Assembly: GCA_009602735.1 (NCBI GenBank)
Contig: WELA01002856.1
Coordinates: 252,742-293,012, forward strand
Length of the DNA: 40,271 nucleotides
Reading direction: 5' to 3'
Source: Mesotaenium endlicherianum
Lineage: Eukaryota
The position numbers were made by a program, and so were the translations under genes. Positions 2,252 to 29,660 of the stretch are shown here, one piece after another. The notes beneath the pieces are model-generated. The model saw nothing but the letters and a program-made list of their open reading frames with translations, was not told the origin of the DNA and ran no database searches. Position 1 is the first letter of the stretch. Every line of letters starts with the position of its first letter.

Positions 2252-3371
2252 TGTCAGATTCAGAGAAAATCGCCCGTCAGGCTTTCACAAAGTCACAGCT
2301 TACAAAACTCTGAAAGTACACGTCTATGCTGGCCTGGGTCAAGCTCTTCACTTAACACCTCGCCTTAACAGTTCTTTATTGCCAGGCTAGGCTCACTCAG
2401 TTCTTCACTGAGAGCTTTATCTGCCAATACTACCCTCTCTCTTCGAGATGCGAATGCGACTTCTGAGAACTTGGAAACTGACACACAACTCACCAATTTA
2501 AGACTGCTTCACACACACTTGTGATTGTGCTAATCTCCTAGCCGATTCTATTCTGCAGTTCTCCTACTTTCAACAGTGAGATTCCTTCTTGGGAACTCCT
2601 ACAAACCTAACTCATCTATGATACATTGAGAACAATCTTCAGCGTCGGCAGAAGCGTGGGGCCTCGGCTCTCCAATGGCCTTGGGAACTCCTTCTTCTTC
2701 TTTGCGCCCTTCTTCTCCTTCCTTCTGCTCCTTCTGCTCCTTCTGCTTCTTGGCAAAAGTGCGTGAGAGTGAATGACATGTCTCAGGCAAGATTCGTGCC
2801 TTTCGCAGGCACCACACAGCGTCATCTTTCGAGAATTCCGTGCTTAGTCACAAAGCTTAGCTGCATGTCGCTTCTGCCTAGCCTTGCTCAACTCAAGCTC
2901 GTAGTCACTCGGCATGCATGCACACCTCGTGACTGTTGCGCGTGGCTGCTTAGCTTCTCAGCTGGCAATCACGCCTAATTGGCTCATGGCGAAGAACTCC
3001 TGAGCGGCGTGTACAAGCAAATGCCACTTGCTCAAGATTCCCAACCGGGCGGCCGTAACCTATCTTGGCTTGCGGCCATGACCTGGTTTAATCTGCCAGT
3101 CACACAGTACCTGACTTGGTACCTGCTGGACGGCTCATCACTGATCCCCAGCTTCTAGCCTCGCGGTTGTCTATGCTGTCAAAACCTCCCCCATCCCTGG
3201 GTGTGGGGCACATTGACATTGACCCCTTGCCAGTGGTCTTGACGCCGACATAACCGCTGACTGCGACGTAATCAGTCAAGTGGTCGGTGAGTCAACGTTG
3301 ACTTTCCGTACCTGGGTGGCCGTAGCTTGCGCTGCGCGTGCGGCACCGTCAAACGGATAATAGTCGCGACA
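2252..3371 (-). repeat. 3' LTR (shared portion) of the DNMT-Gypsy element
   Basis: TGTCAG...GCGACA, 1120 bp. It aligns with 15874-17004 with roughly 25-30 substitutions and 3 indels counted by eye. It may extend to 3677 (see findings). Confidence 0.9.
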
Positions 3372-3677
3372 GCTGTCGTGCCTAACAGTGTCGGTCCCTC
3401 GGCACGTGCGTAGCCTTCCAGCACGTGTGCCTTCGACCTGGTCGATGTGTCGGTGGCCCTCCTCACGTGTGGGCAAACATGGTCGATCGACCTTCGCACG
3501 TGTGTCGGTGACAAGCCTCACCAAGGTTGACCCATCCCTGGGCTCCTGAACTTGCACCATGCAACCATGACCAACACACAGAGCAATGTTCTCCTTCACT
3601 TAGCTCTCACCATCTGCTCATCCTAAGACTTCGCAAAAAATTTTAAAATTACTTGCTTTGCCTTAATTCCTCTTACA

Positions 3678-3688
3678 CCCCTCCCTTT
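3678..3688 (-). other. Candidate polypurine tract of the DNMT-Gypsy element
   Basis: Minus strand reads AAAGGGAGGGG, overlapping the last base of the integrase-PHD stop codon and immediately followed by TGTAAG. Confidence 0.55.
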
Positions 3689-5000
3689 CAGCTGCTGAGG
3701 CGTCCCTGCCTTTTCTGCTGAAAGCTATTTCCAGCCCTGCGGCTAGGGGTTTTAGGAAGGCAGTCAGGACATACCCATCGTCCTGCCATAATCTCTTCCT
3801 CGCCAATGCAGAAAGTGTGCCAACGGGCACCACACTTATCGCAAGTTACCATTGCTTCCTGATCATCCAGCACTTTGCAGCTGGCACAAGGCGTGGCTGG
3901 CACCAATTCCTCGGGCACAACCCTAATCGTAGGATCAATATTCGGCAAATGGCATAGCGAGCAATTCTGCACGTGGTCTCTCATGGTCTTACCATCAGAA
4001 CCTTCCAGTTCTAACACACCATTGTCAATTGCATGTTTCACGCGTAAGAACACTGCACCTGAACTGGTGTCGATGGTGGTCTTGGTCTGGCGCTTGCGAT
4101 TGACGAAGTCTCCTTCTTGAATGTGCGTCATCTGCAGGCGGTAGCTCCCGTCTCGCGTCCTGGCGTAAACGCTGCGTATCTCTTTTCTGCGCAATTTTTA
4201 GATTGTCCAGCGCAGCCGGCATCATGCGCTCAAATAACGCCTTACGACGTACCATCACCTTTAGCAGTTCATCAGGGCTGTCCAGGTCTTTCACCTGTTC
4301 AATCTCCTGCTTGATGCTGCTGGGCACTACTGGACTTCTGCCAAGCAGTATCTGATATGGCGAGTACTTTGCCAAGGCAGCCTGCTTGCTAAATCTGTAA
4401 CCCATAACCAACCATGGCAGGGCCAGATCCCAATCACGCTTGTCATGCTCAAGCCAAAACTTGCGCAAAGCAGACTTAATGGTTTGCACCATCCTTTCTG
4501 CCAGACCATCTGCTTCCGGATGATCTCTAGACGTAGTGCAATGATCGATGAAGCATCTATCCAAGAGTTTCTGAAATGACCCTTGGAACTCGAACCCTTG
4601 GTCTGTCAGCACTTTTGCTGGAGCTCCATGACGCACAATCACACCATTGAGGAGTGCTTCCGCGGTCCCTAGACTCTCCTTAGCAGCCAGAGGCACGACC
4701 TCTATCCACTTAGAGAAATGCTCAATCATGACCATGATATACTTGTTACCTCGCTTAGACAGCGGTAGCTCACCTGCGAGATCACAGCTCCAGCGGTAGC
4801 CTAGGCCCATGATTGGCAGAGGTTGCAAGTGTGGATGTTGCCTGTAAAACTAGCCTTGACGCGATCACAGCTTTGGCAGGCCTTGATCACATCTTCACAC
4901 TGTTGCTTCATGCCCCTCCACCAGTAAGACAGCTCCAAAAGACTATACGTCTTCTTGACACCATAGTGTCCAGTGTTCTCGTGCATTTCCTGCACAAGAG
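3688..5000 (-). pseudogene. Integrase (HHCC, DDE core) with C-terminal PHD finger, frameshifted near 4830 and 4170
   Basis: HENTGH...CQSC zinc finger. Catalytic triad in WSCDLAG / LTDQG / GLAERMV. The C-terminus CASC-x11-CDKC-x4-HTFC-x12-CPDC is a C4HC3 PHD finger (about 3760-3890). Confidence 0.9.
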
Positions 5001-5329
5001 CTCGTCTCCTGATGGGTTCTGGCACTAACTTCTCCTGACCAATTTCTTCAATTTTGAAGAGGTTGTTGCGTTTCCAGCAAAACCTTTTAGCTCGATGGCT
5101 TACCTGGTCCTTCTCCTTCTCTGATAGCACTTCCAAGTGAGTTCCCGTCTGCAGCCAGTGCATAGTAGCTTGATCTTTCCAGATCTCCAAACTGAACAGG
5201 GGTAGAGGCTCAGCTTCACCTGATGCTACCATTCCAGCCATTTCGGCTAGGCAGGCCACCAACTCTGCTGGGCTGCTCGGATGTTCGTCCTCTCGAGCTC
5301 CTGTTATGTCGTCGGAAGATGGGTCTGGG

Positions 5330-5955
5330 TTCCTGCTGAGTCCATCGGCGTCGTTGTTGAGCACTCCTGCTCTGTGTACCACCGTCACTTGGTACTCTTG
5401 CAGCTTAAGAGCCCAGCGAGCCAACTTACCAGTGAGGTCTCCATTCTTCATCAGCCATAGTAATGGTGAGTGATCCGTGATCAGCGTGAAGGGTCTTCCC
5501 CACAGATACTCTCTGAAGTGTGTGACAGCCCAAACCACTGCCGGCAGCTCTCCTTTGTAGGACGAGTAGTTGCTCTCCGCTCAATTGTCAGAGCGTGAGG
5601 CATAGGCAATGACATACTCCTCTCTAGGACTTGCGGCCTGAGTGAGCACTGCGCCAATTCCTACACGACTCCAGTCAGTGTGCAGATTGAACAGCTTGGA
5701 GTAGTCAGGCGTTCGCAAGATTGGGGCTGTAACCAGTCGCTCCTTAAGCTCGTTCATGGCTTTCTCCTGAGCTTCTGTCCACACAAAAGGCACATCCTTT
5801 TTCAGGAGTTCCGTCAGGGGTTTAGCAATTCTGCTATAATCCTTCACAAACTTACGATAGTATCCGCTTAGCCCTAACAGAGCTTTCAGCTTAGACACAT
5901 TCGCAGGTGCAAGTATCTTGTAAATAGCCTCAGTCTTCTCAGCCTGAGGGGACAT
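5330..5955 (-). pseudogene. RT connection and RNase H domain (in-frame TGA at 5581)
   Basis: LLGLSGYYRKFV, FNLHTDWS..GIGAVLTQ, IAYASR, NYSSYKGE, LITDHSPL, LARWALKLQEY and ADGLSR motifs. Confidence 0.93.
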
Positions 5956-6730
5956 AGCATTTTCCCAATCTCATGTCCTAGGTAAGGCACGTGTGCCTCA
6001 AAGAATCTGTACTTCCCAGGATGCAGCTTCATCTGGAATTTTTCCAGGCGCTGGAACACTTGTTCCAAGTGCTCGAGGTGCTCCTCTATGGACTTGCTGA
6101 ATACTACCACATCGTCAATGTATGGCTTAGCAAAATCCAGCCCCTCCAGCACTTTATCCATAGTCCTCTGAAATATGGCTGGGGCATTTTTCAGCCCAAA
6201 TGGCATTACTGTCCATTGCCAAAGTTCCCTTTGAGCCCAGAAAGCGGGCTTACCTCGATCTTCTGTTTTCACAGGGATTTGGTTGAAGCCTTGGCGCAGA
6301 TCGATGATGCTGAACACCTTCCCGGTGGTGGCAATCGCAAGATCCGCTCCGGCGTAGGCATCACATAGCTGTCTGGCTCCGTGTACAGATTCAGTCGCCT
6401 GTAATCTCCACACATACGAGTGGCAGTGTAATTGCCGGCCTCGTCCTTTTTAGCGACTACTACTGTGGGAGCCCCATGCACTGAGGTAGATTTTCCAATC
6501 ATGCGGAGCTTATGCAGCTCTTCGCTAGTTTTCTCCACACAGTCCCATTCTGTCTGACTAAGCTTATGCGGCCCAAGTCTGACTGGGTTATCAATAATTA
6601 GTGTGAACTCACACACACTGGCAGTGATTCTACCAATCTCCTCCTTAGTAAAAGCAAACACCTTGCGGTGTTTCTTCAGCAACCTTTCTACTTGTGCTCT
6701 CTGCTGGGCTGAGACCATTTTCCCAAATGG
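5956..6730 (-). pseudogene. Reverse transcriptase, frameshifted near 6330 and 5960
   Basis: RMCGDYRRLN, FSIIDLRQGFNQI, VMPFGLKNAPAIFQR, YIDD (6111-6122) and YLGH motifs. Confidence 0.95.
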
Positions 6731-8829
6731 CAAAAGCCTCAGTTTCAGGTTGCTTCTCCCCAACAAAGGCATCCAGTAGTTGCAACTCATTGGGTGCAGG
6801 TGTGGGCTTTTCGCCCTCATCCTGGCCCTCAGGCTTTCTGCCTGATTTTGGCTCTCGAGCTTTTCTGCCTGATTCTTAGGAGGTGGGGTAGCAAGCTTTG
6901 CACCTTGCTCCTCCGTTGCCATAGGCTCTGCAGCCTGCTTCCTAGGCTTTTTACCTTTTCCAATGACGCGTCGCCTCTCCTGCTGTGAGGTGTACGTCAG
7001 GCGCCTCCGGATGGGTTGCCTTAGGAACTTTTCTTCGTCGACTGCAGTCCAACTGGTCCCAGTTCCTCCTTCTTCACGTGGCCGAGGTTGGTTAGCCACT
7101 GGCCAACCTGCAGGACCTGTCCTAGGGCTGATTACCCAGCCCCACTCTCGCTCAATAACAACCATGCGGGCGACGGTCGTGCCATACTCCTCCCTTGCGG
7201 GTGGTGTGACCGTCCATGCCTGCGCCAACGTTTGCGACCTTTGAGATGCCGCTAGTTTTGCGAGGAAAACATCATCCGCTGCGGTCAAGCGGCTCATATC
7301 CATCAGTTCCCATTCTGGGATTGCAGGTGTCATGGGAGCAAGTGCCTCCGGCCTCGACATCCTAAGATCTGATAGTTGCAACAGCGGCGTGTTAATGCCT
7401 GGCGGCACACTAATGTCCAATGCCATTGCCCTGCGAATCAAGCCGTCCTCTCCCTCTCTCTGCAGAATATCCCGCAGAGGAGGAGGAGGTGGGGCTGTGG
7501 TTCCTCGCGGAACGCCCTCTCTCTGAGCCTTCCCCTTATGCTTGAAATATCGCTTTAGCATCCTCCTAAAAGATGCGTTACCCTCACGGGCCACCTTCCT
7601 TGGTCTGCTTGCGCGACCTTGGGCTTACCTTGCGCTGTCTCCACTTTAGCAGTGCAGGCAGTCACCTCCTGCCATTGCGGCGGTCGTGCAGTTGACTTGG
7701 GCACTGCCACTGAAAGACTGGCAGTAGGGGTACTGGATGTTGGTGACCTTAGTTCTTCATAAAGGTCTGCCGGGCTTGGCCCCATCAGGTGGTCAGCTAC
7801 CCAGTCGTCTGTCCTCAACTCCTGCAAGTCAAGCAGATCCAACTCTGGCGTGGGAAAACGTGGAATTTCTTCCCTGGCTTCCCCTCCATTGTTGAGTGAT
7901 GGCAACTCAAACTCTGGGAGGCCTTGCATCTCTGCATCCTCTCCCTCCTCCGGCTTCTCTGTTCCAGGAGGCGGCGGTTCTTCATCCCCTCCTGCTTTGA
8001 GCCTCCCCATGTTGATGATGGCTGACTGTAGAGCGCGAGCTGCTTTCGCCACTTTCTCTTCCTTGAGTCGAGGGGCGTCTGCTTCCAGCAATTGCTCCAT
8101 GATTTGCCTGGTGCTCGACTCAGCTGTGCTGCCAACTGTGTCTTGTAGTTGCCCTTTGGCCTCTGGCGCTGGGCTCATCAGAACAGGTGTGGCGGGCAAT
8201 CTCTCGATTGTCTCCTTCCTGCGTTCTTCAAAGATCACCTCCAGGCAAATGGTCTTTCCAGACCCTCCAGAATTTCCTGAATTCTGACTGCATTCTTCGG
8301 CCCATTCGCCAATATTGCACTGGCGTTCTTCATATCTTGACGTTGCCGCGTCTGGGGATGGGCGACATGGTCTTGGGCCATGTTCCGTAACTCAGAAGTG
8401 GTCTCTTCCTCCCCTTCCGGCATCCTCACAAATATTTTGCTGGAGCGTTCTGCAGATAATGGGATCTCTTGTAATTTGCTTGCTGCAGCGCTCTCCAAAG
8501 GGTTTGCTTCACCAGTTGCCTGGTCTTCCATGGCTACGTCTTCCCGCAGCCTTCGCAGCTCTCTTTCCAGAGGGTCGTGTAGAGCCGTTTTCCAATTGTC
8601 AATACGCGCTAGTAGGTCTTGACACCTGGTCAGCTCCGCCACTCTGGTTTCTCTGAGTGCTTCACCTTGGTCAGCCTCAGCTGCGTCCCTTTCAACACCA
8701 TATTCTTCTTGTCGCTGATGCGCTTCCCTGACAGCTCTCTGATCAGAGGTTGGCACCACATGGACTCCAATCGTTACTGGTCTCGGCCTGGGCATAGGCT
8801 TGTCAGAGAATGTCATTTGCTGCCAAGTC

Positions 8830-9794
8830 ATAATCGTCTCCACCAACCACGTCATGGAGTGATGCCCAATCATGTTGCCGAATATCTTCCCAGCGTCGTC
8901 CTGTCCCACCATCGCAACAATTTCTTGTGCAATGGAGTTGGGTACCCCCAGGCACCTTCCCTTCTCTTCAGCTGTCGGCTCTCTCCACTGAGCTTCTCTG
9001 TTGTGCGCGTTCTTAACCATGTCTGGTCCTCCATTCACGAATGCGCGTGATCCTGGGTATGCCGTGAAGGTGGGCAGCACCACCCTCGGCCGGCCTGGCT
9101 CGTTGACGACGTGCTGTGGGTAGGAATCCCTCCTGATCACTGGCTTGGTTTCCACCATCAGTGCTTCTCCCACAGATGCTGCTGTTGGTGTGCGCCGCGT
9201 AATCTCCTCCATCTCCCTCAGGACTTCAATGGACATGCCGTTGGTCCAGAATAGTCTGGCCCGGTGTGAGACTCCTCCGTGCCTGGCGTCGTTGATCAAT
9301 ACATGATGACCCAGGGTGGAGTCAAAGACCAGCCATGGATCTCCTGGGTTCATCTGGTTGTAATCCATCCCTGGACGTACATTCTCAATCACAAACACTG
9401 GTGGGTAGAGATGCTGGCGTTCCCGCAGCATACTGATGATTTTCACCATCCATCCCCAGTGTTGTGCTCGCAGGTCATTGAATCCCCTCCTGTTCCCAGC
9501 TTGCAAGAAAGGTTGACAAGGGAATCCCGCAAAGATCCAGTCAATCCTGTAATCATACGAGTCCTCAGACTTCACATCGAGAATGTTTCCTCCAGCAAGA
9601 CGCACCAAACTAGAGTCAGTAGGCACCAACGCCTTGAAATGATGCATTTGCCGAATCTGACTCATGATCTCCTTAAATGCTGTGAAAGCACTCTCATCAT
9701 TGTCCACATACAGCACTTTGGATACTTGGATACCTCGCTGAATCTGTGAGATGGTTCCAGAACCAAGTTCGGCGAACAATTCCAGCACTACTAC
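8830..9794 (-). pseudogene. C5 cytosine DNA methyltransferase domain, in frame with the retroelement protease (ORF 8235-10445)
   Basis: Ordered motifs: I VLELFAELG (9762-9794), II LYVDND, III GNILDV, IV AGFPCQPF (catalytic Cys 9516-9518), VI FVIENV (9378-9386), VIII HRARLFWTN, IX RCLGVP, X IFGN. Confidence 0.92.
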
Positions 9795-10149
9795 TCCTCT
9801 CCTGTGAAATGGATCTTCCATCCTCACAATGCCTTGCGGCAGCGGGTCTACTCCAGGCATCGAATTGGCAGCAGACTTAACTGGATAAGGAACTGGCAGG
9901 AGCTCTTGCGGGCCACGGTCCCTCTTACTCACAGTTTCCAGTTGCTCCATAATCCGAGGTTGCCAAACCAAGGGAGTCGGCATGTTGACGCTGGTGTAGC
10001 CCTCCTCTTCGCGTTGCATGATGAGGTCATAATGGTCTGGACACCGGTCATTCACACAACAGTCTAGCAGTCCGTAGTTCGCCTCTTCCCAGCAAACCAT
10101 TTTTACAGGAATTTCTCCTGTCGGCTGCCGATCTGTCGACTGGTAAGTC

Positions 10150-10463
10150 ACCCTCTGCTTCCGCAGGTCGATGACCATACCCAGGGGAATCTGGGCTTCT
10201 GTCCCCAAGAGGACATCATAGTTCTCTGCCTCTGTCACCGTGCATTCTATGAGCAGTGACGCCTCCTCAGGTTTCCCCAAATTTACTGTGATTTTCACAG
10301 GCTTGCGGGTAATTCCACAAGAGTTTGAAATCTGCCCAGATGCAGTCCTCAACTGAAATGGACTTTCTTTCAGGTCCCTTGCCGTCAATCCCAGAGCTTT
10401 CACAGCTCGCTTTCCCAAGATTACTGGCTGTGCGCCAGTGTCCAATAGGATATTGGAAGCGGC
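10150..10463 (-). pseudogene. Retroviral-type aspartic protease
   Basis: ILLDTGAQPVILG active site and downstream YDVLLG flap-side motif, in the same frame as gag and DNMT. Confidence 0.9.
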
Positions 10464-10580
10464 TCAGTCGTTGAACGTCAAAACTCTATCCTTGTTCTGC
10501 ACTCTCACAGTGCTGAAATTAGTAGGCAGCGAAGCGCTGTTCGCGCCTTCCTCAGCTATGTCCAGCTGCTGTCCGGCTTC

Positions 10581-12373
10581 TTAAACCGTGAAAGGGTACG
10601 TAAGACGCAGATCAGCGAGTGAAAGACAAGGAATGTGCTGAATCCGGTGTTCCACCAGAGCCTTCAGCTTCTCCAGCGAAAAACTAAATGTCTTGCGTGG
10701 CCCAGGCTTGGCTTGTCGTAGCTGCGCAATCTCGTTCTCATCGAGAGTGATCCGAAAGGTCTGAGGAAGCTTCCCAGCATTCCTTGGAACCAGACGGTCA
10801 TGATCTGCGCGCTTCGCAGCCGTTGCAGCCACGGCCTTCTCAGGCGTCAGCTTCTCGCCTTTGCAGACGGTCTTTTCGGCCACATCTGCATCATAATAGA
10901 CATTGGGGACATTTAGTTTTGCGAATTGAGCTTTCAACTCTGCAATCTCTGCACTCATAGCATCATACTTCTGGTTACCCTTTCGGTTACCAGAGTTATC
11001 TTTCTCTTTTTTCTTACCCTTATCTCCCTCTTTCGTGGCAGCATTAGCCCATGGTGGCTTCAGATTTGGGTTCTTGGACCAACACTCATCTTCTGAGTGT
11101 CCCTTTTTGCTGCAATGTGCGCATACCTGCGCCTTGCTAGCAGACAATTGCTTAGCATCCGGGTACGGACAATCTCTCTTCTGATGTCCCCATTTCCCGC
11201 AATTCCAACAGCCCTCTGCTGTCTCAGCAGTGTTGGCGTGCTTAGCAAACCTATTGAAAGACCCGCTCTTCTTCTTAAACTGAAAATTAGAGCTATTGGC
11301 CTTAGGCTGAAAGGATTCCTCCTTTCTCTCAGGAGCCATAAGCGTCCTGGAAGCCTCCTTGTACCAGACTTTACCTTCCTCGACATTGCGTGCTATTTCA
11401 GCAGCCTCGTCGATGTTCCAGTCGATTCCGCGTTTCGTAGATAGGTGCGGCCTGACCTCCCGATCTATGTCTTTACCCAAACACAATAAGAATTTGTCAG
11501 CCACAATCCTAGGCTCATAGATTCCCGCCTTCTTGGCAAGGTCTACCAATCTGGATTTGACCTCCATCACTCTCTCGTTCTTCTGACGGACAAAATGCAC
11601 ATAATGGTGCACCTTAAGACTGCGATCCTCTGGGAAATCTGCTTCAAGCAACTTAAAGAAACGACGCTGACAGTGCTCAGAGTCTAACTGGTCATTCCCA
11701 GCCTCCATATCCCTACGGCAACTAGCCAACGCTTGCGCATGGCTTGCTTCCGTGGTGGCACTATCACCATGCTGCCCTGTAAAAGGTGCAGTCCAGCGCG
11801 TTACTCGTTCCTGAGCATTAGCAATCTTTTCAGACAATTCTGCACACACTTTACGCAATTCTGCGACACACCCAGCATCATCATCTCAAGTAGCCGCTCG
11901 CTGTTGACCCTCGATGAGTTGCCTCATGGCATCTGTTAATTCTTGTGTTAGTGCAGCTAAGTCTACGCTCTCAACAGGTGCAGCAGGTTTCGCTCTTCCT
12001 GATAACAAAGCGGACAGGCGGGCTTTCGCAGCCTGTTTCTGGATTTTTAAATTCCTCGCCTTCTTTTGCTCGTCAAACGCCCATTCCTGGGTAAGGTTCT
12101 CATTCTTCCGGAATTGGCGATAAAGCAACAAGGCATCCTTGTCCAAGTACTGAACCAAGCTTATAAAAGCGACTGACTGAGTGTAAGAAGAATCCTTTTG
12201 GATTCTCTCAAAGAAATCAGCCCAATAGATCTCATCAAACTCTTCGAAAGTGAGACTATTTCCACCTGTTCGTCCACTAAAACACTTTGTAGACAGCTCA
12301 AACTTAGGATTTTCATCCTTATCATCACCAGTCATTTCGAATGGTGACTAAGACTCACTAACTTTACCCCACA
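10581..12373 (-). pseudogene. gag: Gag (main part) with two CCHC zinc knuckles
   Basis: ORFs 11886-12335 and 10581-11858 share one frame separated by a TGA. FVRQKNERVMEV major-homology-like region. Knuckles CWNCGKWGHQKRDC and CAHCSKKGHSEDEC. Confidence 0.88.
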
Positions 12374-12876
12374 TGTAGTGATTTGAGTTATTACATATTA
12401 GTTTGCATATATTTTAATGTTTTCAAATATATTTGGAGTAGTATTGTGTGGAGTCAAGTGTGAATAGGTACTCTAGTAACTTGGTTCATGTCCTTTGAAC
12501 CTTCCAAGGCATTTTTGAAGTTTGAGGAAAGACCTAGAAGAACTCCATGTGGCAAAAGTCAAATGTGCCATTTTTAGGTCAAAAGGACATGTGTACATTA
12601 TTCTAGAAAGAGGTGGCAAGTTTTGGGATGTGTTGGGTGCCAACACATCAACATACACCTTCCTAGAAATTACTTATGTAGCAAGTATATAAACAAGAGC
12701 TAGAACATAGAAAGACATTCCAGAATCACTCTTGTACTTGCCAAAATCCAGAAATATATTAACTTTCAAGAAGCCATCTCTCTTTCAAGAAGCTACCACT
12801 TGTGTTCAAAGATCCTTGTCTTGAATAGATAAAGTATTCTGTTTTACTAAGTACTTTATCTATCTGTTTCACTACA
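12374..12876 (+). repeat. 5' LTR of nested chromovirus
   Basis: TGTAGTG...CACTACA with 7-bp inverted termini, TATATAAA at 12686-12693, and 6 substitutions versus the 3' LTR counted by eye. Confidence 0.97.
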
Positions 12877-12877
12877 G

Positions 12878-12889
12878 TGGTATCGGAGC
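12878..12889 (+). promoter_or_regulatory. Primer binding site, initiator tRNA-Met type
   Basis: TGGTATCGGAGC one base after the 5' LTR, with one mismatch to the canonical plant TGGTATCAGAGC. Confidence 0.88.
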
Positions 12890-13150
12890 TAGGCACTTTG
12901 GTAGCACAAGAAGATGGCCGATCCTCAAGACCAACAGCAAGCTTTCGAAGGAAGCCCTTCCTCTCCAAGACACCCTCCTCCAGCGCCGATGGGAGAGCCC
13001 ACTCAAGAAAATCTGCAAAACAAGAAGCACCACAAGGAGGAGCACCGTCAAATCCGGTGGCAGCCGCTATAGCAAAGTTAACCCCACCACAAGGAGTTCT
13101 CGCAAATGAGTGGGCAGCCTTCCTAATGACCGTCCACAACCAAGTGGGCN

Positions 13151-14120
13151 TGGCCATTTCTAGAAAAATCTCTTTAAGAACTTGGGTACATCGCTGGATA
13201 TGTCCACTGCCTACCACCCGCAATCAGATGGGCAAACCGAGCGTATGAATCGTACTCTAAAGACCTCTTTAAAGGCCTACGTGTCTACCCTCGAGCAAGA
13301 CTGGGACATGTACTTGACCCCCCTCGAGTTTGCCTACAACAACACTACGCAGGCCTCTACCCAAGAGTCCCCATTCTTCCTCAACTATGGCTTCCATCCG
13401 ACCACGCCACTGAGCTTCACGGCTGGCCTTGATGAAGTACCTGCAGCCACAGATTTTATGGAGACATTAGAAGCAGCCCTTACAGCAGCGAAGAAAGCTC
13501 TACAACACGCGCAAGATGCTCAAGCAAGAGTGGCGAACAGATCCAGAAGAGAAATTACGTACAAAGCGGGTGACAACGTGTCACTATCATCCAAGAATAT
13601 TTCCGTGAACAACAGGCCTGCCGGCAGCAAGTTCTCTCCCAAGTATTTGGGACCCTTCAAGATTATCCAGCAAGTCAACCCCGTTGCTTTCAAGCTAGAA
13701 CTTCCCCAGACTATGCACATCGACCCCGTATTCCACGCTTCCCTCTTCAAGCCATATGTGCAACCCGACAACAAGTTCCCAGGACGTGTGACAACCCCAC
13801 CAGCCCCAACAATAGTGGATGATCATTTGGAGTACGAAGTGGAAGACATAGTGGCTATGAGAAATTTCAGGAGACAGCAGCAATACTTGATCAAGTGGAA
13901 AGGATATCCAGATTCGGAGAATAGTTGGGTGGCGGCGCACTACCTTGACAAAGTTCAGAGAAAGTTGAAGCGCTTCCATGCCGCCAACCCCCATCTTGGA
14001 CCAGCCCCAAGTCTCTCTACTAGAAGCCCGAAGACTTCAGGGAGGCAGCCTGCCACCATCAAGAAGCAGCAGAAGACCCCTTGGAGGCAGCCTGCAAGAA
14101 CAAGAAAGAGGAAAAATTGA
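13151..14120 (+). pseudogene. Integrase C-terminal half with GPY/F motif and chromodomain
   Basis: STAYHPQSDGQTERMN, EFAYN, SPFFLNYG, KYLGPFKI, PVFHASL. Chromodomain YEVEDIV...YLIKWKGYPDSENSW. One in-frame TAG just after the n. Confidence 0.93.
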
Positions 14121-14745
14121 CATTAGACACTCTTCTCTTCTCGCAGTTTCTGGACAGAAAACTAAAACTGCTACTGGTAATAGGTCTCTGCATAATAAAT
14201 TCTGAAAATTTACCTGGCTGTAGTCCATGAGTAGCCGGTCATTTAGAGTCCAAGTTTGCTCAATTTGGAGCACTGGTGAGAGAGATATGATGCTCTAAGT
14301 AGAAGGGGGTCAGGCTGCTGGCATTGTTAGGGCAGAATATGCCTTCTGACATTGTGCCCTCCCCTGAACTTGGAATGCTCTGAAACTCAAGACTCTGGTA
14401 GAACATCTTACAGCGCCCAGTTTGAGACTTAGTTTGCAGAATTTGGAGAAGTATAGAAGGACTTATGATTTTCAGAAGTTTCTGCACAGATTTGGAGGAG
14501 TGCCTACTCTCTCAGCTCTCAACGACACTCCAGAAATGAGAATGCTCTCAAATTTGGTGACCCGGTAGAGTTCTCCGACGCGGTCCGTCTGGCACTCGAA
14601 TTTTCAGATTTGGAGCAGTTCTGTGGCCGCTATGAATTTTTGAGTTCGTGGCAGATTCTGGGCCAACTTGTACAATTTTCTTTATCATTAAGGAGTAGGC
14701 TAGCCAATAAGGTCACACCACCTACGACCTTGCCTAGTCTACCTT

Positions 14746-14856
14746 ACATGTGTAGCACCTGACTTGGCGCCTTTGACTAGTCCTCTTCACATGTGTGGCA
14801 TCTGACTTGAAACTGTTGACTAGTTTGCTCCACATGTGTAAGACCTGACTTGACGC
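14746..14856 (+). repeat. About 2.6 tandem copies of a 43-bp unit in the chromovirus 3' UTR
   Basis: ACATGTGT....CTGACTTG......TTGACTAGT units start at 14746, 14789 and 14832. Confidence 0.85.
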
Positions 14857-14879
14857 GCCGAGACGTCGCTTTTTCTATC

Positions 14880-14889
14880 GGGGGGGTGA
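14880..14889 (+). other. Polypurine tract of nested chromovirus
   Basis: GGGGGGGTGA immediately before the TG of the 3' LTR. Confidence 0.85.
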
Positions 14890-15392
14890 TGTAGTGATTT
14901 GAGTTATTATATATTAGTTTGCATATATTTTAATGTTTTCAAATATATTTGGAGTAGTATTGTGTGGAGTCAAGTGTGAATAGGTACTCTAGTAACTTGG
15001 TTCATGTCCTTTGAACCTTCCAAGGCATTTTCGAAGTTAGAGGAAAGACCTAGAAGAACTCCATGTGGCAAAAGTCAAATGTGCCATTTTTAGGTCAAAA
15101 GGACATGTGTACATTATTCTAGAAAGAGGTGGCAAGTTTTGGGATGTGTTGGGTGCCAACACATCAACATACACCTTCCTAGAAATTACTTATGTAGCAA
15201 GTATATAAACAAGAGCTAGAACATAGAAAGAGATTCCAGAATCACTCTTGTACTTGCCAAAATCCAGAAATATATTAACTTTCAAGAAGCCATCTCTCTT
15301 TCAAGAAGCTACCACTTGTGTTCAAAGATCCTTGTCTTGAATAGATAAACTATTCTATTTTACTAAGTACTTTATCTATCTGTTTCACTACA
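14890..15392 (+). repeat. 3' LTR of nested chromovirus
   Basis: 503-bp near-identical copy of 12374-12876, followed by TSD CCACA. Confidence 0.97.
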
Positions 15393-15639
15393 CCACACGT
15401 CGTGCTCTCTGCCCAAATTGGGTACAAAGGCTTGCGCGTTATACGGATTCTCACCGTTTGTGGCAGTATGGCGAGACTCGTCTCTCGACGGTTGCTCACT
15501 CCACAGGTTATCCGTGCGCTCAGATGTCTCACTTCCTCGTGGACTTTGACTTGAATCAGAACCTTCCGNGACTTTGACTTGAATCAGAACCTTTCGCAGG
15601 ATCCACAGTTTAGTAGAGTCTTCCACTCCTCAACCGCAT
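15393..15639 (-). pseudogene. gag: N-terminal piece of the DNMT-Gypsy gag, split off by the nested insertion
   Basis: Starts MRLRSGR (ATG 15639), an LRSG-type Gag N-terminus. After removing the insertion and one TSD it reads ...REHDVWGKVSES*SPFEMTGDD in frame with ORF 11886-12335. Confidence 0.7.
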
Positions 15640-15873
15640 GTACGGTTGAATTTCTCCGGGGCCCCTTCCAGGTTGAGCACCGGCAGCCCTCACAGGCCTC
15701 AATCCCCAATTTGCTTGGGAATTTCTCTTCACCTGAACCACGGAACCGAAGTTTTCAGAAGTAGGACGGAAGTCTCTTACTTCCACATAGGCTTTATGTC
15801 TTGAGGTTCTTGGGTTCACAGGCGAGCAAATTGTAGTTTGCAGAAATCACACTCTAAGCAGCTTGACATATAA

Positions 15874-17004
15874 CGTCAGATTCAGAGAAAATTGCCCTTC
15901 AGGCTTTCGCTTAACTTTCACAAAGTCACAGCTTACAAAACTCTGAAACTACACGTCTATGCTGGCCTGGGTCAAGCTCTTCACTTAACACCGCGCCTTA
16001 ACAGTTCTTTACTGCCAGGCTAGGCTCACTCAGTTCTTCACTGAGAGCTTTATCTGCCAATACTACCCTCTCTCTTCGAGATGCGAATGCGACTTCTGAG
16101 AACTTGGAAACTAACACACAACTCACCAATTTAAGGCTGCTTCACACACACTTGTGGCTGTGCTAATCTCCTAGCCAATTCTATTCTGCAGTTCTCCTAC
16201 TTTCAACAGTGAGATTCCCTCTTGGGAACTCCTACAATCCTAACTTATCTATGATACATTGAGAAGAATCTTCAGCGTCGGCAGAAGCGTGGGGCCTCGG
16301 CTCTCCAATGGCCTTGGGAACTCCTTCTTCTTCTTTGCGCCCTTCTTCTCCTTCCTTCTGCTCCTTCTGCTCCTTCTGCTTCTTGGCAAAAGTGCGTGAG
16401 AGTGAATAACATGTCTCAGGCAAGATTCGTGCCTTTTGCAGGCACCACACAGCGTCATCTTCGAGAATGCCGTGCTTAGTCACAAAGCTTAGCTGCATGT
16501 CGCTTCTGCCTAGCCATGCTCAACTCAAGCTCGTAGTCACTCGGCATGCATGCACACCTCGTGACTGTCGCGTGTGGCTGCTTAGCTTCTCAGCTGGCAA
16601 TCACGCCTAATTGGCTCATGGCTAAGAACTCCTGAGCGGCGTGTACAAGCAAATGCCACTTGCTCAAGATTCCCAACCGGGCGGCCGTAACCTATCTTGG
16701 CATTGCGGCCATGACCTGGCTTAATCTGCCAGTCACACAGTACCTGACTTGGTACCTGCTGGGCGGCTCATCACTGATCCCCAGCTTCTAGCCTCGCGGC
16801 TGTCTATGCTGTCAAAACCTCCCCCATCCCTGGGTGTGGGGCACATTGACATTGACCCCTTGCCAGTGGTCTTGACGCCGACATAACCGCTGACTGCGAC
16901 GTAATCAGTCAAGTGGTCGGTGAGTCAACGTTGACTTTCCGTACCTGGATGGCCGTAGCTTGCGCTGCGCGTGCGGCACCGTCAAACGGATAGTAGTCGC
17001 GACA
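15874..17004 (-). repeat. 5' LTR of the DNMT-Gypsy element
   Basis: 1131-bp direct repeat of 2252-3371, with 11 extra bp near 15909 and first base C instead of T. Confidence 0.9.
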
Positions 17005-27250: not shown

Positions 27251-29660
27251 TCACAAGAAGCTGGTGGTGATGGCCAGATCGCGCAGGTTGGCTACAATCT
27301 GGCGCCGCGTTGTCCCAATCTGCTTGGCCATGCTCTCCTGCGTTCCCAGCTCCAGCATGTCATAGCTGCAGTCCCCCCGCAGACCCCATCCAAGTGAAGC
27401 ATCAGTCCCCTCCCTCCCTGACACACCAAGATACGGCACACCTGCTGCTGCTGCTTCTGCTGCTTTGCTGCTTCTGCTGCTTTGCTGCTTCTGCTGCTAC
27501 AGCTGGGAGGCCAAGCAGGAAGAGGGGAGAGAGCGCACTGGTGGAGCAGCTCGCAGTCGATGATGGAGTCAGGCATCCCCTGCCGCAGCTCCGCGCCGCT
27601 CTGCACCGTGCGCCGGAACGCTCGCGGGTGGAGGCCCGCCACATGCGGCACCGCATCCACCAGCCTCTTCTGCCATTCCCTCCCACAGCCGCCCCTGCCT
27701 CCATGCTCAGCTTGCCTTCCCCGGCAGGTGAGGCGAGGGCATGCATGAATGCAGGCATGCATGCACACGTGCGAGGGCAGATCACCTGAAGGTCTTGAAG
27801 GCGTCTGAAAGTGCGCTCGTCGAGGGGCGCCACCATGCTGATGCTGCCGTCCAGGCCTCCGCACAACAAGGCTACCCTTCGGGAGATGGGCCCTCCGGCG
27901 AGCGCGGGCAGCATGGCCTGGCCCACGAAAGAGGAGATGCGCACCCCCGCGTGGAAGTCGCCACGCGGCACCAGCTTCGGGCCCCTGAGGCTCTCAATCT
28001 TTGTGGGGGCATAGCCCAGGATCTGCCCGCCCACATGTTCCACATAAGCAGCAGTTTAGCAGCAGCAGCAGCAGTACCAGCAGCAGGAGGGCGACGAGGA
28101 GGAGGGGTAAGGGGGGGGGGCGTGCACGCACGCGCAGATTGCCGGAGGCATCGCAGGCAAGTAGCGACAGCATGCTGCCGTCAATGAGAAAGTCGGTGGC
28201 CAGCGTGTCCATGGGCGCAAAGTCCTTGGCCAGCATGATGAGCTGCGCGCCCTCTTCCCGCCACTGCACAAAGTAGAGGCTCTTGTGCACGTCCCCCACC
28301 AGGATGTAGTTCTTTACCTGCACCACCACGCTCACGCTCCCCCACCAGCACGTGTCTGCTCAGCCGCCCGCGCTTTCCTCCACCTGTCTACCATCCGCTT
28401 AGGAGACGGGGAGCACGGGAGACGTACCACGCTGAGGGTGACCACATACAGCGGGCAGTCAAAGAAGGCGATGGGATTGAGGTGCTGGCCGTTCCACGTG
28501 TGCATGTTGAGCTTGGTGCCGATGGCCACCAGCAGATACCCGGGTGCCAGGGTGGCGATGGCGGACACGGCCCCCTTGTGCTCCTTGCTGTAGACCTCCG
28601 CCACCTGCAGGACAAAAGGCTCACTCCACATCTTACGAGTCCTCGAGGGGGGGGGGGGGCTNAGGACAAAAGGCTCACTCCACATCTTACGAGTCCTCGA
28701 GGGGGGGGGGGGCTGGGGGGGCTGGGGAGAGGCATATGAGAGAGGGGGCGTACGAGTTGAGAGGAGTCGTCCACTGCAGAGGAGGCGATGGAGAAGAGGA
28801 CGATGCGGCCGCGGCACGCCACGTCTTCGCCCGCCACAAACGCCGTGCCCATGACCAGCAGCACCTCGCTCGCGCCTGACTGCGTGTTCTGCGCCCTCAC
28901 CCCCCAACCGCGTGAGAGAGGCAGGAAGGGACTGGCGCTGCCCTGCAAGCATACGGTGACGACGATGACGATGCAGAAGTGCCCCCCATTGCAGAGCGTA
29001 CTTGAAGGGTGACGACTTTGAGGCAGAGGCCGTTCTCCAGAAGATGGAGCGGCACAGCGGCCGCCTTCGCCACCTCCCAGCACGCGGAGGAGGAGGAGGA
29101 GGAGGAAGAGCGCGCGTTGCTGCCCATGCCACCGCTATTCTCCTCACCCTCGAGGGCAGCTGCGGACGGCGGGAGGACCACCCGCAGCTCAAAGTCATCC
29201 ACCCACACTTTAGGGCCCTCGCCCTCGCCCACCCCCTCCCCCTCCCCCTCCTCCTCCTTGAGGTGGTCGGAGGGGGGCTTGCTGTCCTCCTGCTGCTGCT
29301 GCTGCGCTTGCTCGCCGCCTGCTGCCGCCAGCAGCTGTGATGAATGTCGCTGCACCTGAACCACCACCAGCGGCAGCAGCAAGCAGTCAGCCAGTGGCAC
29401 CCCTCCTCTCCCTGGGTTGCTGCCGGGCGGGAGAAGGAAGGTGAAGGTTGTACTCACAGCAGTGGAGGCGATGACAAACAAGAGCCCCGCCTGCGGGGCA
29501 TGTGCGATGGCATGCACCGTTGCGCCCATTGCCACCTGCCCTTTCCCAACAGCCCTCCCCTTAGTGTTGCTCTTTCAAAAACACAGAGCATATGAAATCC
29601 CCCTTGTGCCCTCCTGGCTCCATCCCTTTCTCTCCCTATCCCTCACACACACACAAATGA

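Follow-up and report, generated by a model that had tools for sequence, protein, structure and literature searches.

A 40,271-nucleotide stretch of the Mesotaenium endlicherianum genome (contig WELA01002856.1, positions 252,742 to 293,012; hereafter, the window) holds a Ty3/Gypsy long terminal repeat (LTR) retrotransposon, at 2253-17004 on the minus strand, whose integrase ends in a plant homeodomain (PHD) finger and whose polyprotein also carries a DNA methyltransferase (DNMT). By Pfam, the parts run Gag, protease (PR), DNMT, reverse transcriptase (RT), RNase H (RH), integrase (IN) and PHD; PR, RT, RH and IN stand in Ty3/Gypsy order on the minus strand, as in the Gypsy-DNMT3 elements. The parts and the open reading frames (ORFs) that hold them are as follows:

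2253..3371, minus strand: 3' LTR of the DNMT-PHD Gypsy element (blastn self-comparison; 2282-3371 against 15915-17004, 97.6% over 1091 nt)
3691..4197, minus strand: ORF piece with the C-terminal SH3-like barrel of the integrase, the PHD finger and a 22-residue tail; stop at 3688-3690
3760..3888, minus strand: C4HC3 PHD finger, residues 104-146 of ORF 3691-4197 (PF00628)
4160..4175, minus strand: site of a 1-base frameshift between the integrase core frame and the barrel-PHD frame (overlapping ORFs 4025-4849 and 3688-4197)
4025..4849, minus strand: piece with the integrase catalytic core (rve; PF00665, E 4.7e-11)
4801..5580, minus strand: C-terminal half of RNase H (PF17917, E 1.2e-20) and the H2C2 zinc-binding domain of the integrase (PF17921, E 1.1e-16)
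5581..6449, minus strand: reverse transcriptase (5886-6449; PF00078, E 1e-28) and N-terminal half of RNase H (5581-5970; PF17919, E 1.1e-19), in separate frames
6269..8391, minus strand: two ORF pieces (6269-7624 and 7555-8391) between DNMT and RT, each with 0 Pfam families; 6269-7624 continues into the N-terminus of RT
8235..10463, minus strand: aspartic protease (N-terminal ~90 residues), then C5 cytosine DNA methyltransferase (~8790-9860; PF00145, E 1.7e-12; PCQ and ENV motifs)
10581..12347, minus strand: Gag with a CCHC zinc knuckle; in-frame stop at 11886-11888
12374..15392, plus strand: nested, internally deleted LTR element of chromovirus type, in the leader of the DNMT-PHD element, with its own LTR pair
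15875..17004, minus strand: 5' LTR of the DNMT-PHD Gypsy element (blastn self-comparison)

A second segment of the LTRs, 2253-2286 against 15875-15908, is 94% alike in the same self-comparison. Two of the domain matches lie slightly below their Pfam cut-offs, those of the protease (PF13975, E 4e-6, 27.8 bits against 28.2) and of Gag (PF00098, E 4.9e-4, 20.5 bits against 20.8). The copy in the window is decayed and inactive, as judged from at least six frame changes in pol, the in-frame stops in pol (5581-5583) and in Gag, and the nested insertion.

An earlier, sequence-only reading of the locus had placed a C4HC3 PHD finger at 3688..4194, and 3760-3888 is confirmed as a genuine one. The pattern C-x2-C-x11-C-x2-C-x4-H-x2-C-x12-C-x2-C occupies residues 104-146, with all eight zinc ligands in C4HC3 order and at canonical spacing (CASC-x11-CDKC-GARW-H-TFC-x12-CPDC in the window); the match to PF00628 (E 8.1e-7) scores 29.4 bits against a cut-off of 24 and spans profile positions 1-47 of 47. 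In the AlphaFold2 model, a prediction built on a 40-sequence alignment rather than a solved structure, the predicted local distance difference test (pLDDT) score is 90-95 across the finger; ahead of it lies a five-strand barrel (strands at residues 31-81, pLDDT up to 94) closed by the motif NCxxCHLPNID. Foldseek lays the modelled finger on the PHD fingers of BAZ2B and BAZ2A with a root-mean-square deviation (rmsd) of 1.6-1.7 Å over 48-49 columns at 31-35% identity (BAZ2B, 1.6 Å, 33%); superpositions on the PHD fingers of BAZ2B, BAZ2A, KDM5B and Lid range from 1.6 to 3.2 Å, and the double PHD of MOZ/MORF, ATXR5, UHRF1 and TAF3 are among the further matches. A Pfam score above the cut-off, a confident model and PHD folds as the nearest structures thus agree on the identity of the domain.

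The finger is also no solitary sequence. Word-based homology searches with the PHD ORF and with the PR-DNMT ORF gave no matches; the family was found by a profile search and by a HMMER scan of 1.84 billion representative proteins, which matched 936 proteins at E<=1e-3 and 303 at E<=1e-10. From these searches 187 relatives were assembled (150 from HMMER and 37 from the profile search), and among the 185 that are left when two multi-PHD proteins are set aside, 170 keep the strict C4HC3 pattern with all eight ligands at ~28-46% identity; these matches and the retained ligands exclude a chance resemblance. In the 40-sequence family alignment C104, C107, C119, C122, H127, W141 and C143 are invariant, W141 being the conserved Trp two residues before Cys7, and the ligands as a whole are invariant or nearly so, a pattern that suggests purifying conservation of the finger. 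Most relatives are metagenomic, and Atlas look-ups lead to Streptophyta and Chlorophyta clusters, which serve as leads only; of the named relatives, a EukProt protein with the label jgi/Mesen1 is the closest, at 74% identity over 65 residues.

To which enzyme does the finger belong? In the window it shares one ORF with the C-terminal barrel of the integrase, and in 146 of the 150 HMMER relatives listed a single protein contains the barrel and, immediately after it, the PHD; of the other four, two break off at the barrel and two are the multi-PHD proteins, which lack a barrel. Pfam finds PF00628 in all 29 long relatives and integrase domains ahead of it in 27 of them. In the window copy the frame of the integrase core (that of 4025-4849) is one base out of register, near 4167, with the frame of the barrel and PHD (that of 3688-4197). 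Contigs of four public sequencing runs were aligned to 3600-5600 at >=85% likeness, and in three runs there are contigs with one base fewer at 4167 (11, 2 and 2 contigs); by frame arithmetic, the absence of this base puts core, barrel and PHD into a single frame. A base inserted at 4841, again in contigs of three runs, joins the frame of the H2C2 finger to that of the core. One run (X1) yields 2401 family contigs at >=85% likeness and 457 at >=99%, and the 2401 matching contigs indicate that the family is very abundant in the organism sequenced there. The sequence-only reading would have been undone by a PHD out of frame with the integrase in intact copies; what the other copies and the relatives hold is a fusion of integrase and PHD that is constant across a large family.

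The same reading had put the finger where chromoviruses carry a chromodomain, and this placement stands. The family profile of the PHD ORF aligns with the integrase tail of the nested chromovirus at 97.2% probability (hhalign); since that remnant has SH3_Tf2-1 and then Chromo, and the integrase tails are homologous, the PHD occupies the chromodomain's place. Pfam finds PHD only, and no Chromo match, in ORF 3691-4197; it is the nested element that supplies the chromodomain seen in the window. As in the chromoviruses MAGGY and Tf1, a chromatin reader thus follows ~20-25 residues past the SH3-like barrel of a homologous integrase tail. The likeness ends with the reader itself: it is a PHD instead of a chromodomain, its predicted ligand is the unmodified N-terminus of histone H3 instead of H3 methylated at K9, and the window element adds a DNMT.

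The finger lies in the same element as the C5 DNMT, as the sequence-only reading had noticed, and the two travel together. To count co-occurrence on the PHD side, domains of the 187 relatives were mapped with the domains of the window and a hidden Markov model (HMM) of the family DNMT, and DNMTs were scored by phmmer and this HMM, Pfam detecting the family DNMT in just 3 of the 29 long relatives (E<=1e-5). Forty relatives span RT, RH and IN, and 36 of them have a DNMT, which sits between RH and IN in 34 and before RT in two (P0025, P0203). No DNMT is seen in four: three have a short gap between RH and IN and too little sequence upstream of RT to judge, and the fourth, P0205, has a long gap between RH and IN without a DNMT match. 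In a further 26 partial proteins the DNMT precedes IN; another 119 do not extend far enough to judge. On the DNMT side, a motif drawn from the family DNMT alignment matched 154 metagenome stretches, from which 50 loci were confirmed. A PHD follows the integrase in 27 of these, and 21 contigs end before that place; among the loci that extend far enough, the PHD is present in 27 of 29. The two exceptions are L031, whose Cys/His finger is divergent and scores below threshold, and L019, where an interruption follows the beginning of the integrase core. Counted from either side, the pair is constant within this family.

Three of the 21 early-ending loci (L044, L045 and L046) differ in kind: their DNMT comes in four pieces over ~2.5 kb, with no RT, RH or IN near. 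They may be intron-bearing cellular genes of DNMT3 type, related to the DNMT of the elements.

The DNMT itself appears to be DNMT3-like. Compared alone with the PDB, the window DNMT finds M.HaeIII and M.HhaI only, and weakly; a profile of seven family DNMTs finds DNMT3A first (9.4e-14), followed by DNMT3C and DNMT3B, with M.HhaI (5e-9), plant DRM, DNMT2 and DNMT1 ranked below the DNMT3s. Another family profile (A2) is swamped by integrase and PHD matches and is uninformative on the DNMT. The assignment agrees with the one published for the Klebsormidium elements (as described in PMC5890265).

Its place in pol marks two clades. A FastTree phylogeny of the integrase from the H2C2 finger to the barrel, with the PHD excluded, has 91 rows, its support values being Shimodaira-Hasegawa-like (SH-like) only; 97 of the 187 relatives were left out because one of four parts was absent or the H2C2 match was short. 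The window groups with P0003, P0025, P0090 and P0187 at an SH-like support of 100. In this clade no DNMT lies between RH and IN, the order is PR-DNMT-RT where the sequence reaches (the window and P0025), and pol ends within ~25 residues after the PHD; in the main clade, RH-DNMT-IN-PHD is followed by 300-400 more residues. The P0025 DNMT matches the family DNMT HMM at 7.5e-88, and the DNMTs of both positions are therefore homologous; one capture followed by relocation is a simpler reading than two captures.

The main-clade extension past the PHD (P0002, P0004, P0015, P0035, P0037, P0146) often begins with 'GVT'. A Tudor domain, PF21743, is sub-threshold in P0004 and P0035 and stands in the precomputed Pfam list of P0146, and the extension may be a second reader module. 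In P0021 (402 residues) the PHD is followed, at residues ~229-272, by a motif like EPFAGTGG, together with a weak, sub-threshold match to D12-class N6-adenine DNA methyltransferases (PF02086, E 0.0046), an arrangement reminiscent of the LTR elements with DAM described in passages of a preprint (bioRxiv 10.64898/2026.05.21.726589).

What might such a finger read? The sequence-only reading stressed that the residue two before the His is Arg, not the Trp of the cage that holds methylated lysine. Trp is indeed absent, from the window and from all 170 relatives with the full pattern, and the family lacks the aromatic methyl-lysine cage residue of ING, BPTF and TAF3. The stress on Arg was misplaced: this residue is confined to the window copy or close kin of it and found in none of the 170, which have Gly (145), Ala (21) or, once each, Thr, Tyr, Cys and Leu. 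Other residues are shared with PHD fingers that hold the H3 tail: an Asp follows Cys3 in the window (CDKC) and in 160 of the 170 relatives; the G-x-W loop reads AGRW in the window, with W141 as its Trp; and an acidic patch follows Cys2, DDQE in the window, and in 138 of the 170 relatives the Cys2-Cys3 loop contains 2-4 Asp or Glu. The closest PDB sequences to the window finger are PHF10, Lid PHD1, WSTF, MLL3, KDM5B PHD1, p300 and BAZ2B; the family profile finds CHD4, Lid, KMT2D, KDM5D, MLL3, KDM5A, PHF12, KDM5B, ATXR5, WSTF, BAZ2B, PHF21A, UHRF1 and AIRE, and neither ING, BPTF nor TAF3 is among the 60 PDB matches listed for it. One of the Foldseek matches, PDB entry 4q6f, is titled as the BAZ2A PHD with an unmodified H3K4 peptide. 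Searched against the protein library, the family profile meets its first non-transposon match in a plant protein that carries the name 'JmjN domain' and has PHD among its Pfam entries; its other Pfam accessions we take to be JmjC, JmjN and ARID, presumably making it a KDM5-type protein.

The structure of KDM5B PHD1 with H3 unmethylated at K4 (H3K4me0), as described in PMC4225485, gives these residues a meaning: D328 contacts H3R2, while P347, G349 and W351 hold H3A1. The same source gives a dissociation constant of 6.4 uM for H3K4me0 and binding more than 15-fold weaker for K4me3. The window finger shares with the PHD fingers of KDM5A/B (PHD1), BAZ2A/B, BHC80 (PHF21A), AIRE and CHD4 the C4HC3 pattern, the missing cage, the Asp after Cys3, the G-x-W loop and the acidic patch, and H3K4me0 readers of this set (KDM5 PHD1, BAZ2, BHC80, AIRE, CHD4) are its best matches by sequence, profile and structure; it differs in lacking an acidic residue before Cys1 (D308 in KDM5B), in the Arg at the cage position and in its fusion to an integrase. 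From these residues we predict a finger that binds the N-terminus of H3 and does so with no methyl-lysine cage, and a preference for unmethylated K4 is likely.

On this basis we propose that in live members of the family the PHD tethers the integrase to nucleosomes unmethylated at H3K4, as the chromodomain does at H3K9me; we give this reading a probability of about 0.5, and as a mechanism targeting to H3K4-unmethylated chromatin is plausible. The PHD on the integrase would bind the N-terminal tail of H3, would prefer nucleosomes with unmethylated K4 and would thereby shift the choice of insertion sites away from active promoters; the element's own DNMT might then methylate the new copy or its surroundings. 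Later papers cite Gao 2008 for the finding that chromodomains direct Gypsy integration, and retrotransposon DNMTs are described as methylating CG de novo (PMC5890265). Integration targeting is favoured over a role in directing the DNMT because the PHD stays on the integrase while the position of the DNMT varies.

Several observations weigh against this proposal. PHD fingers bind non-histone partners as well, and on fold alone TAF3, a reader of H3K4me3, superposes about as well as BAZ2, so that the call on the reader class rests on few residues. The window finger departs from its family in the Arg at the cage position, in a Met for the loop Pro and in M-V-T for M-L-L. Before Cys1 it reads P-A-T-P, with no acidic residue at a position that is not conserved in the family, and the contact to K4 cannot therefore be assigned: K4 is held in KDM5B by D308, four residues before Cys1, and in BHC80 by E488/D489 (as described in PMC4225485). 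The acidic patch after Cys2 may take the place of this acid. The DNMT-side motif was drawn from this same family and is silent on unrelated Gypsy lineages that bear a DNMT. In ~6% of one polyA RNA run, representing one condition and taken at >=95% likeness, there were no reads on 3691-12139, except for a depth of 0.6 in one bin.

If the finger does not read H3 at all, it could be a structural or protein-protein module that binds a host factor, DNA or a part of the intasome. In favour of this, the window lacks the acid before Cys1, the K4 holder of KDM5B and BHC80, and the matches include PHD-like fingers with non-histone ligands, for instance the PHD of UHRF1 bound to Stella peptides. Against it, the family as a whole keeps both the Asp that follows Cys3 and the G-x-W loop, which in solved complexes hold H3R2 and H3A1, and all top PDB profile matches are H3-tail binders; we regard a non-H3 module as improbable, the least probable of the alternatives weighed here. 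Somewhat less remote, though still unlikely, is that the finger serves the methyltransferase in the manner of an ADD domain, directing or releasing it on chromatin that is unmethylated at H3K4, with methylation of the element itself or of its neighbourhood as the outcome; this is the 'target-and-silence (or camouflage)' system of the sequence-only reading. In its favour are the near-constant pairing of PHD and DNMT, the DNMT3-like profile of the latter and the de novo CG methylation by retrotransposon DNMTs described in PMC5890265; there is no Pfam reader domain beside the DNMT in the PR-DNMT ORF of the window, and in the main clade, where IN-PHD comes immediately after the DNMT (34 of 40), an uncleaved DNMT-IN-PHD protein is conceivable. 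In the window clade, however, the DNMT stands before RT, and RT, RH and IN lie in the ~1,500 residues that separate it from the PHD; the PHD remains on the integrase despite this distance, which points to IN as its partner, and it sits at the place that the integration-targeting chromodomain takes in other Gypsy lineages.

A bolder extension, which we put no higher, is that the lineage has rebuilt the logic of the cellular DNMT3 enzymes, in its own polyprotein, with an H3K4me0 finger in the role of ADD and a DNMT3 catalytic domain, and that insertion and methylation are coupled: the integrase would land on unmarked chromatin, the DNMT would methylate the fresh copy immediately, and the copy would be disguised as silent DNA from its arrival, by a device preserved over long evolutionary times. 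Within this reading, a PHD fixed on the integrase and a DNMT that moved between two positions in pol would be a co-selected pair. The claim of the sequence-only reading that the element is a 'reader plus writer' toolkit in one polyprotein stands in part: the PHD is on the integrase and not on the DNMT, and the phrase fits a shared polyprotein rather than an established coupled enzyme. A separate matter, compatible with any of these functions, is whether the family is extinct in this genome and the PHD a fossil, which is possible but the less probable alternative. The frameshifts and stops, the nested insertion, LTRs that are 97.6% alike and the lack of interior reads in the polyA RNA run all fit an extinct family. 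Against extinction stand the family contigs of run X1, some of which preserve the frame at 4167 and 4841, and P0187, a protein of 1083 residues with RT-RH-IN-PHD (43% identical to the query) that stems from a transcriptome assembly and bears the label of a complete ORF.

How much of this is new? Gypsy retrotransposons with DNMT3 have been described in the streptophyte alga Klebsormidium nitens (de Mendoza 2018, PMC5890265), and passages of the preprint cited above name a streptophyte 'Gypsy-DNMT3' and other elements with methyltransferases and chromodomains. Compared by its description, KnitGypsy-Dnmt3 shares with the window element the LTR Gypsy type, an intron-less DNMT3-related domain in pol and a host in the green lineage. 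It differs in its repeats, which the legend to Fig. 4c of PMC5890265 gives as DIRS-like; the window element has two direct LTRs, and its arrangement is not DIRS-like because the other pair of repeats is that of the nested element, which has its own target-site duplication. The window clade also differs in having the DNMT between PR and RT and not between RH and IN. The term 'PHD' has 0 occurrences in the main text and three text supplements of that paper, whose Fig. 4c may draw the domain unnamed. PHD fingers, for their part, are recorded as accessory domains of retrotransposon polyproteins: in Chlamydomonas Gypsy-7a_cRei, in REM1, in CR1 long interspersed nuclear elements and in cnidarian PYGO-type fusions (PMC9940879, PMC8557442, bioRxiv 2021.11.30.470311). 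By the passages on these elements, the PHD of Gypsy-7a_cRei is listed before INT (PMC9940879), the PYGO-type fingers are readers of methylated H3K4, and no DNMT is mentioned beside any of them (in the same three sources).

Gypsy-DNMT3 elements and transposon PHD fingers are thus both already published, the novelty is modest, and the 'novel system' of the sequence-only reading, an interpretation that is partly supported overall, was in that respect overstated. What is new against print is the fusion of IN and PHD in the Gypsy-DNMT3 family, for which no paper that names it was found in the literature searched, and the subclade that includes the window, with the DNMT before RT and a pol that ends at the PHD. 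The finger, its place after the barrel, the DNMT in the same pol, the constancy of both IN-PHD and PHD-DNMT and the missing cage residue are directly established, and they make the family a natural case of a mobile element that carries a probable histone-tail reader together with a DNA-methylation writer, in a pairing that is near-constant in every sample drawn. If the finger reads unmethylated H3K4, the family would provide (i) a second reader-guided system of Gypsy integration, independent of chromoviruses; (ii) a simple way to test how transposons choose chromatin; and (iii) a parallel to the ADD-DNMT3 coupling of the cellular enzymes.

The limits of the outer element are less regular than its coding parts. 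Its termini on the minus strand are TGTC...CTGAC, and no clean target-site duplication was found at them (TTTCT or ATTTC against TAAAT). No purine-rich tract adjoins the 3' LTR; a purine-rich run at 3661-3687 (minus strand) follows directly after the pol stop, ~290 nt (3372-3660) from the LTR edge as defined by the repeat. This stranded run and the missing duplication put the true 3' boundary of the element, or a deletion in its 5' LTR, at issue. Between DNMT and RT, ~700 residues (6269-8700, minus strand) are rich in Glu, Arg, Pro and Ala, partly coiled-coil-like and without a Pfam family.

The nested chromovirus remnant is better delimited: its LTRs, 12374-12876 and 14890-15392, are 98.8% alike and end in TG..CA, and it has a tRNA-Met-like primer site (primer-binding-site-like TGGTATCGGAGC) and a 5-bp target duplication, CCACA. 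In its ORF, 13164-14120, Chromo follows SH3_Tf2-1 25 residues on. PolyA RNA reads cover 13134-14624 at a depth of 60-117, with splice-like joints at 13437>13941 and 14090>14213 that have CT..AC ends (GT..AG on the minus strand), whereas the ORF is on the plus strand; about half of the reads differ from the window at many sites. This seems to be a spliced transcript, antisense to the ORF of the remnant and made from paralogous copies.

Near the start of the window, a run of N (an assembly gap) at 359-898 is followed by a 186-nt reversed fragment of the nested LTR (899-1084, 99.5% to 14890-15075); gap and fragment mark the neighbourhood of the element, AT-rich at 34% GC, as rich in repeats. Far from the element, ORF pieces at 27292-29453 on the minus strand have matches to PF03178, the region of the CPSF A subunit (E 1.4e-7 and 6e-4), and probably belong to a host gene of the CPSF160/DDB1/SF3B3 kind; they lie inside a stretch of 62-67% GC at 28-34 kb, a GC content far above that of the transposon part.

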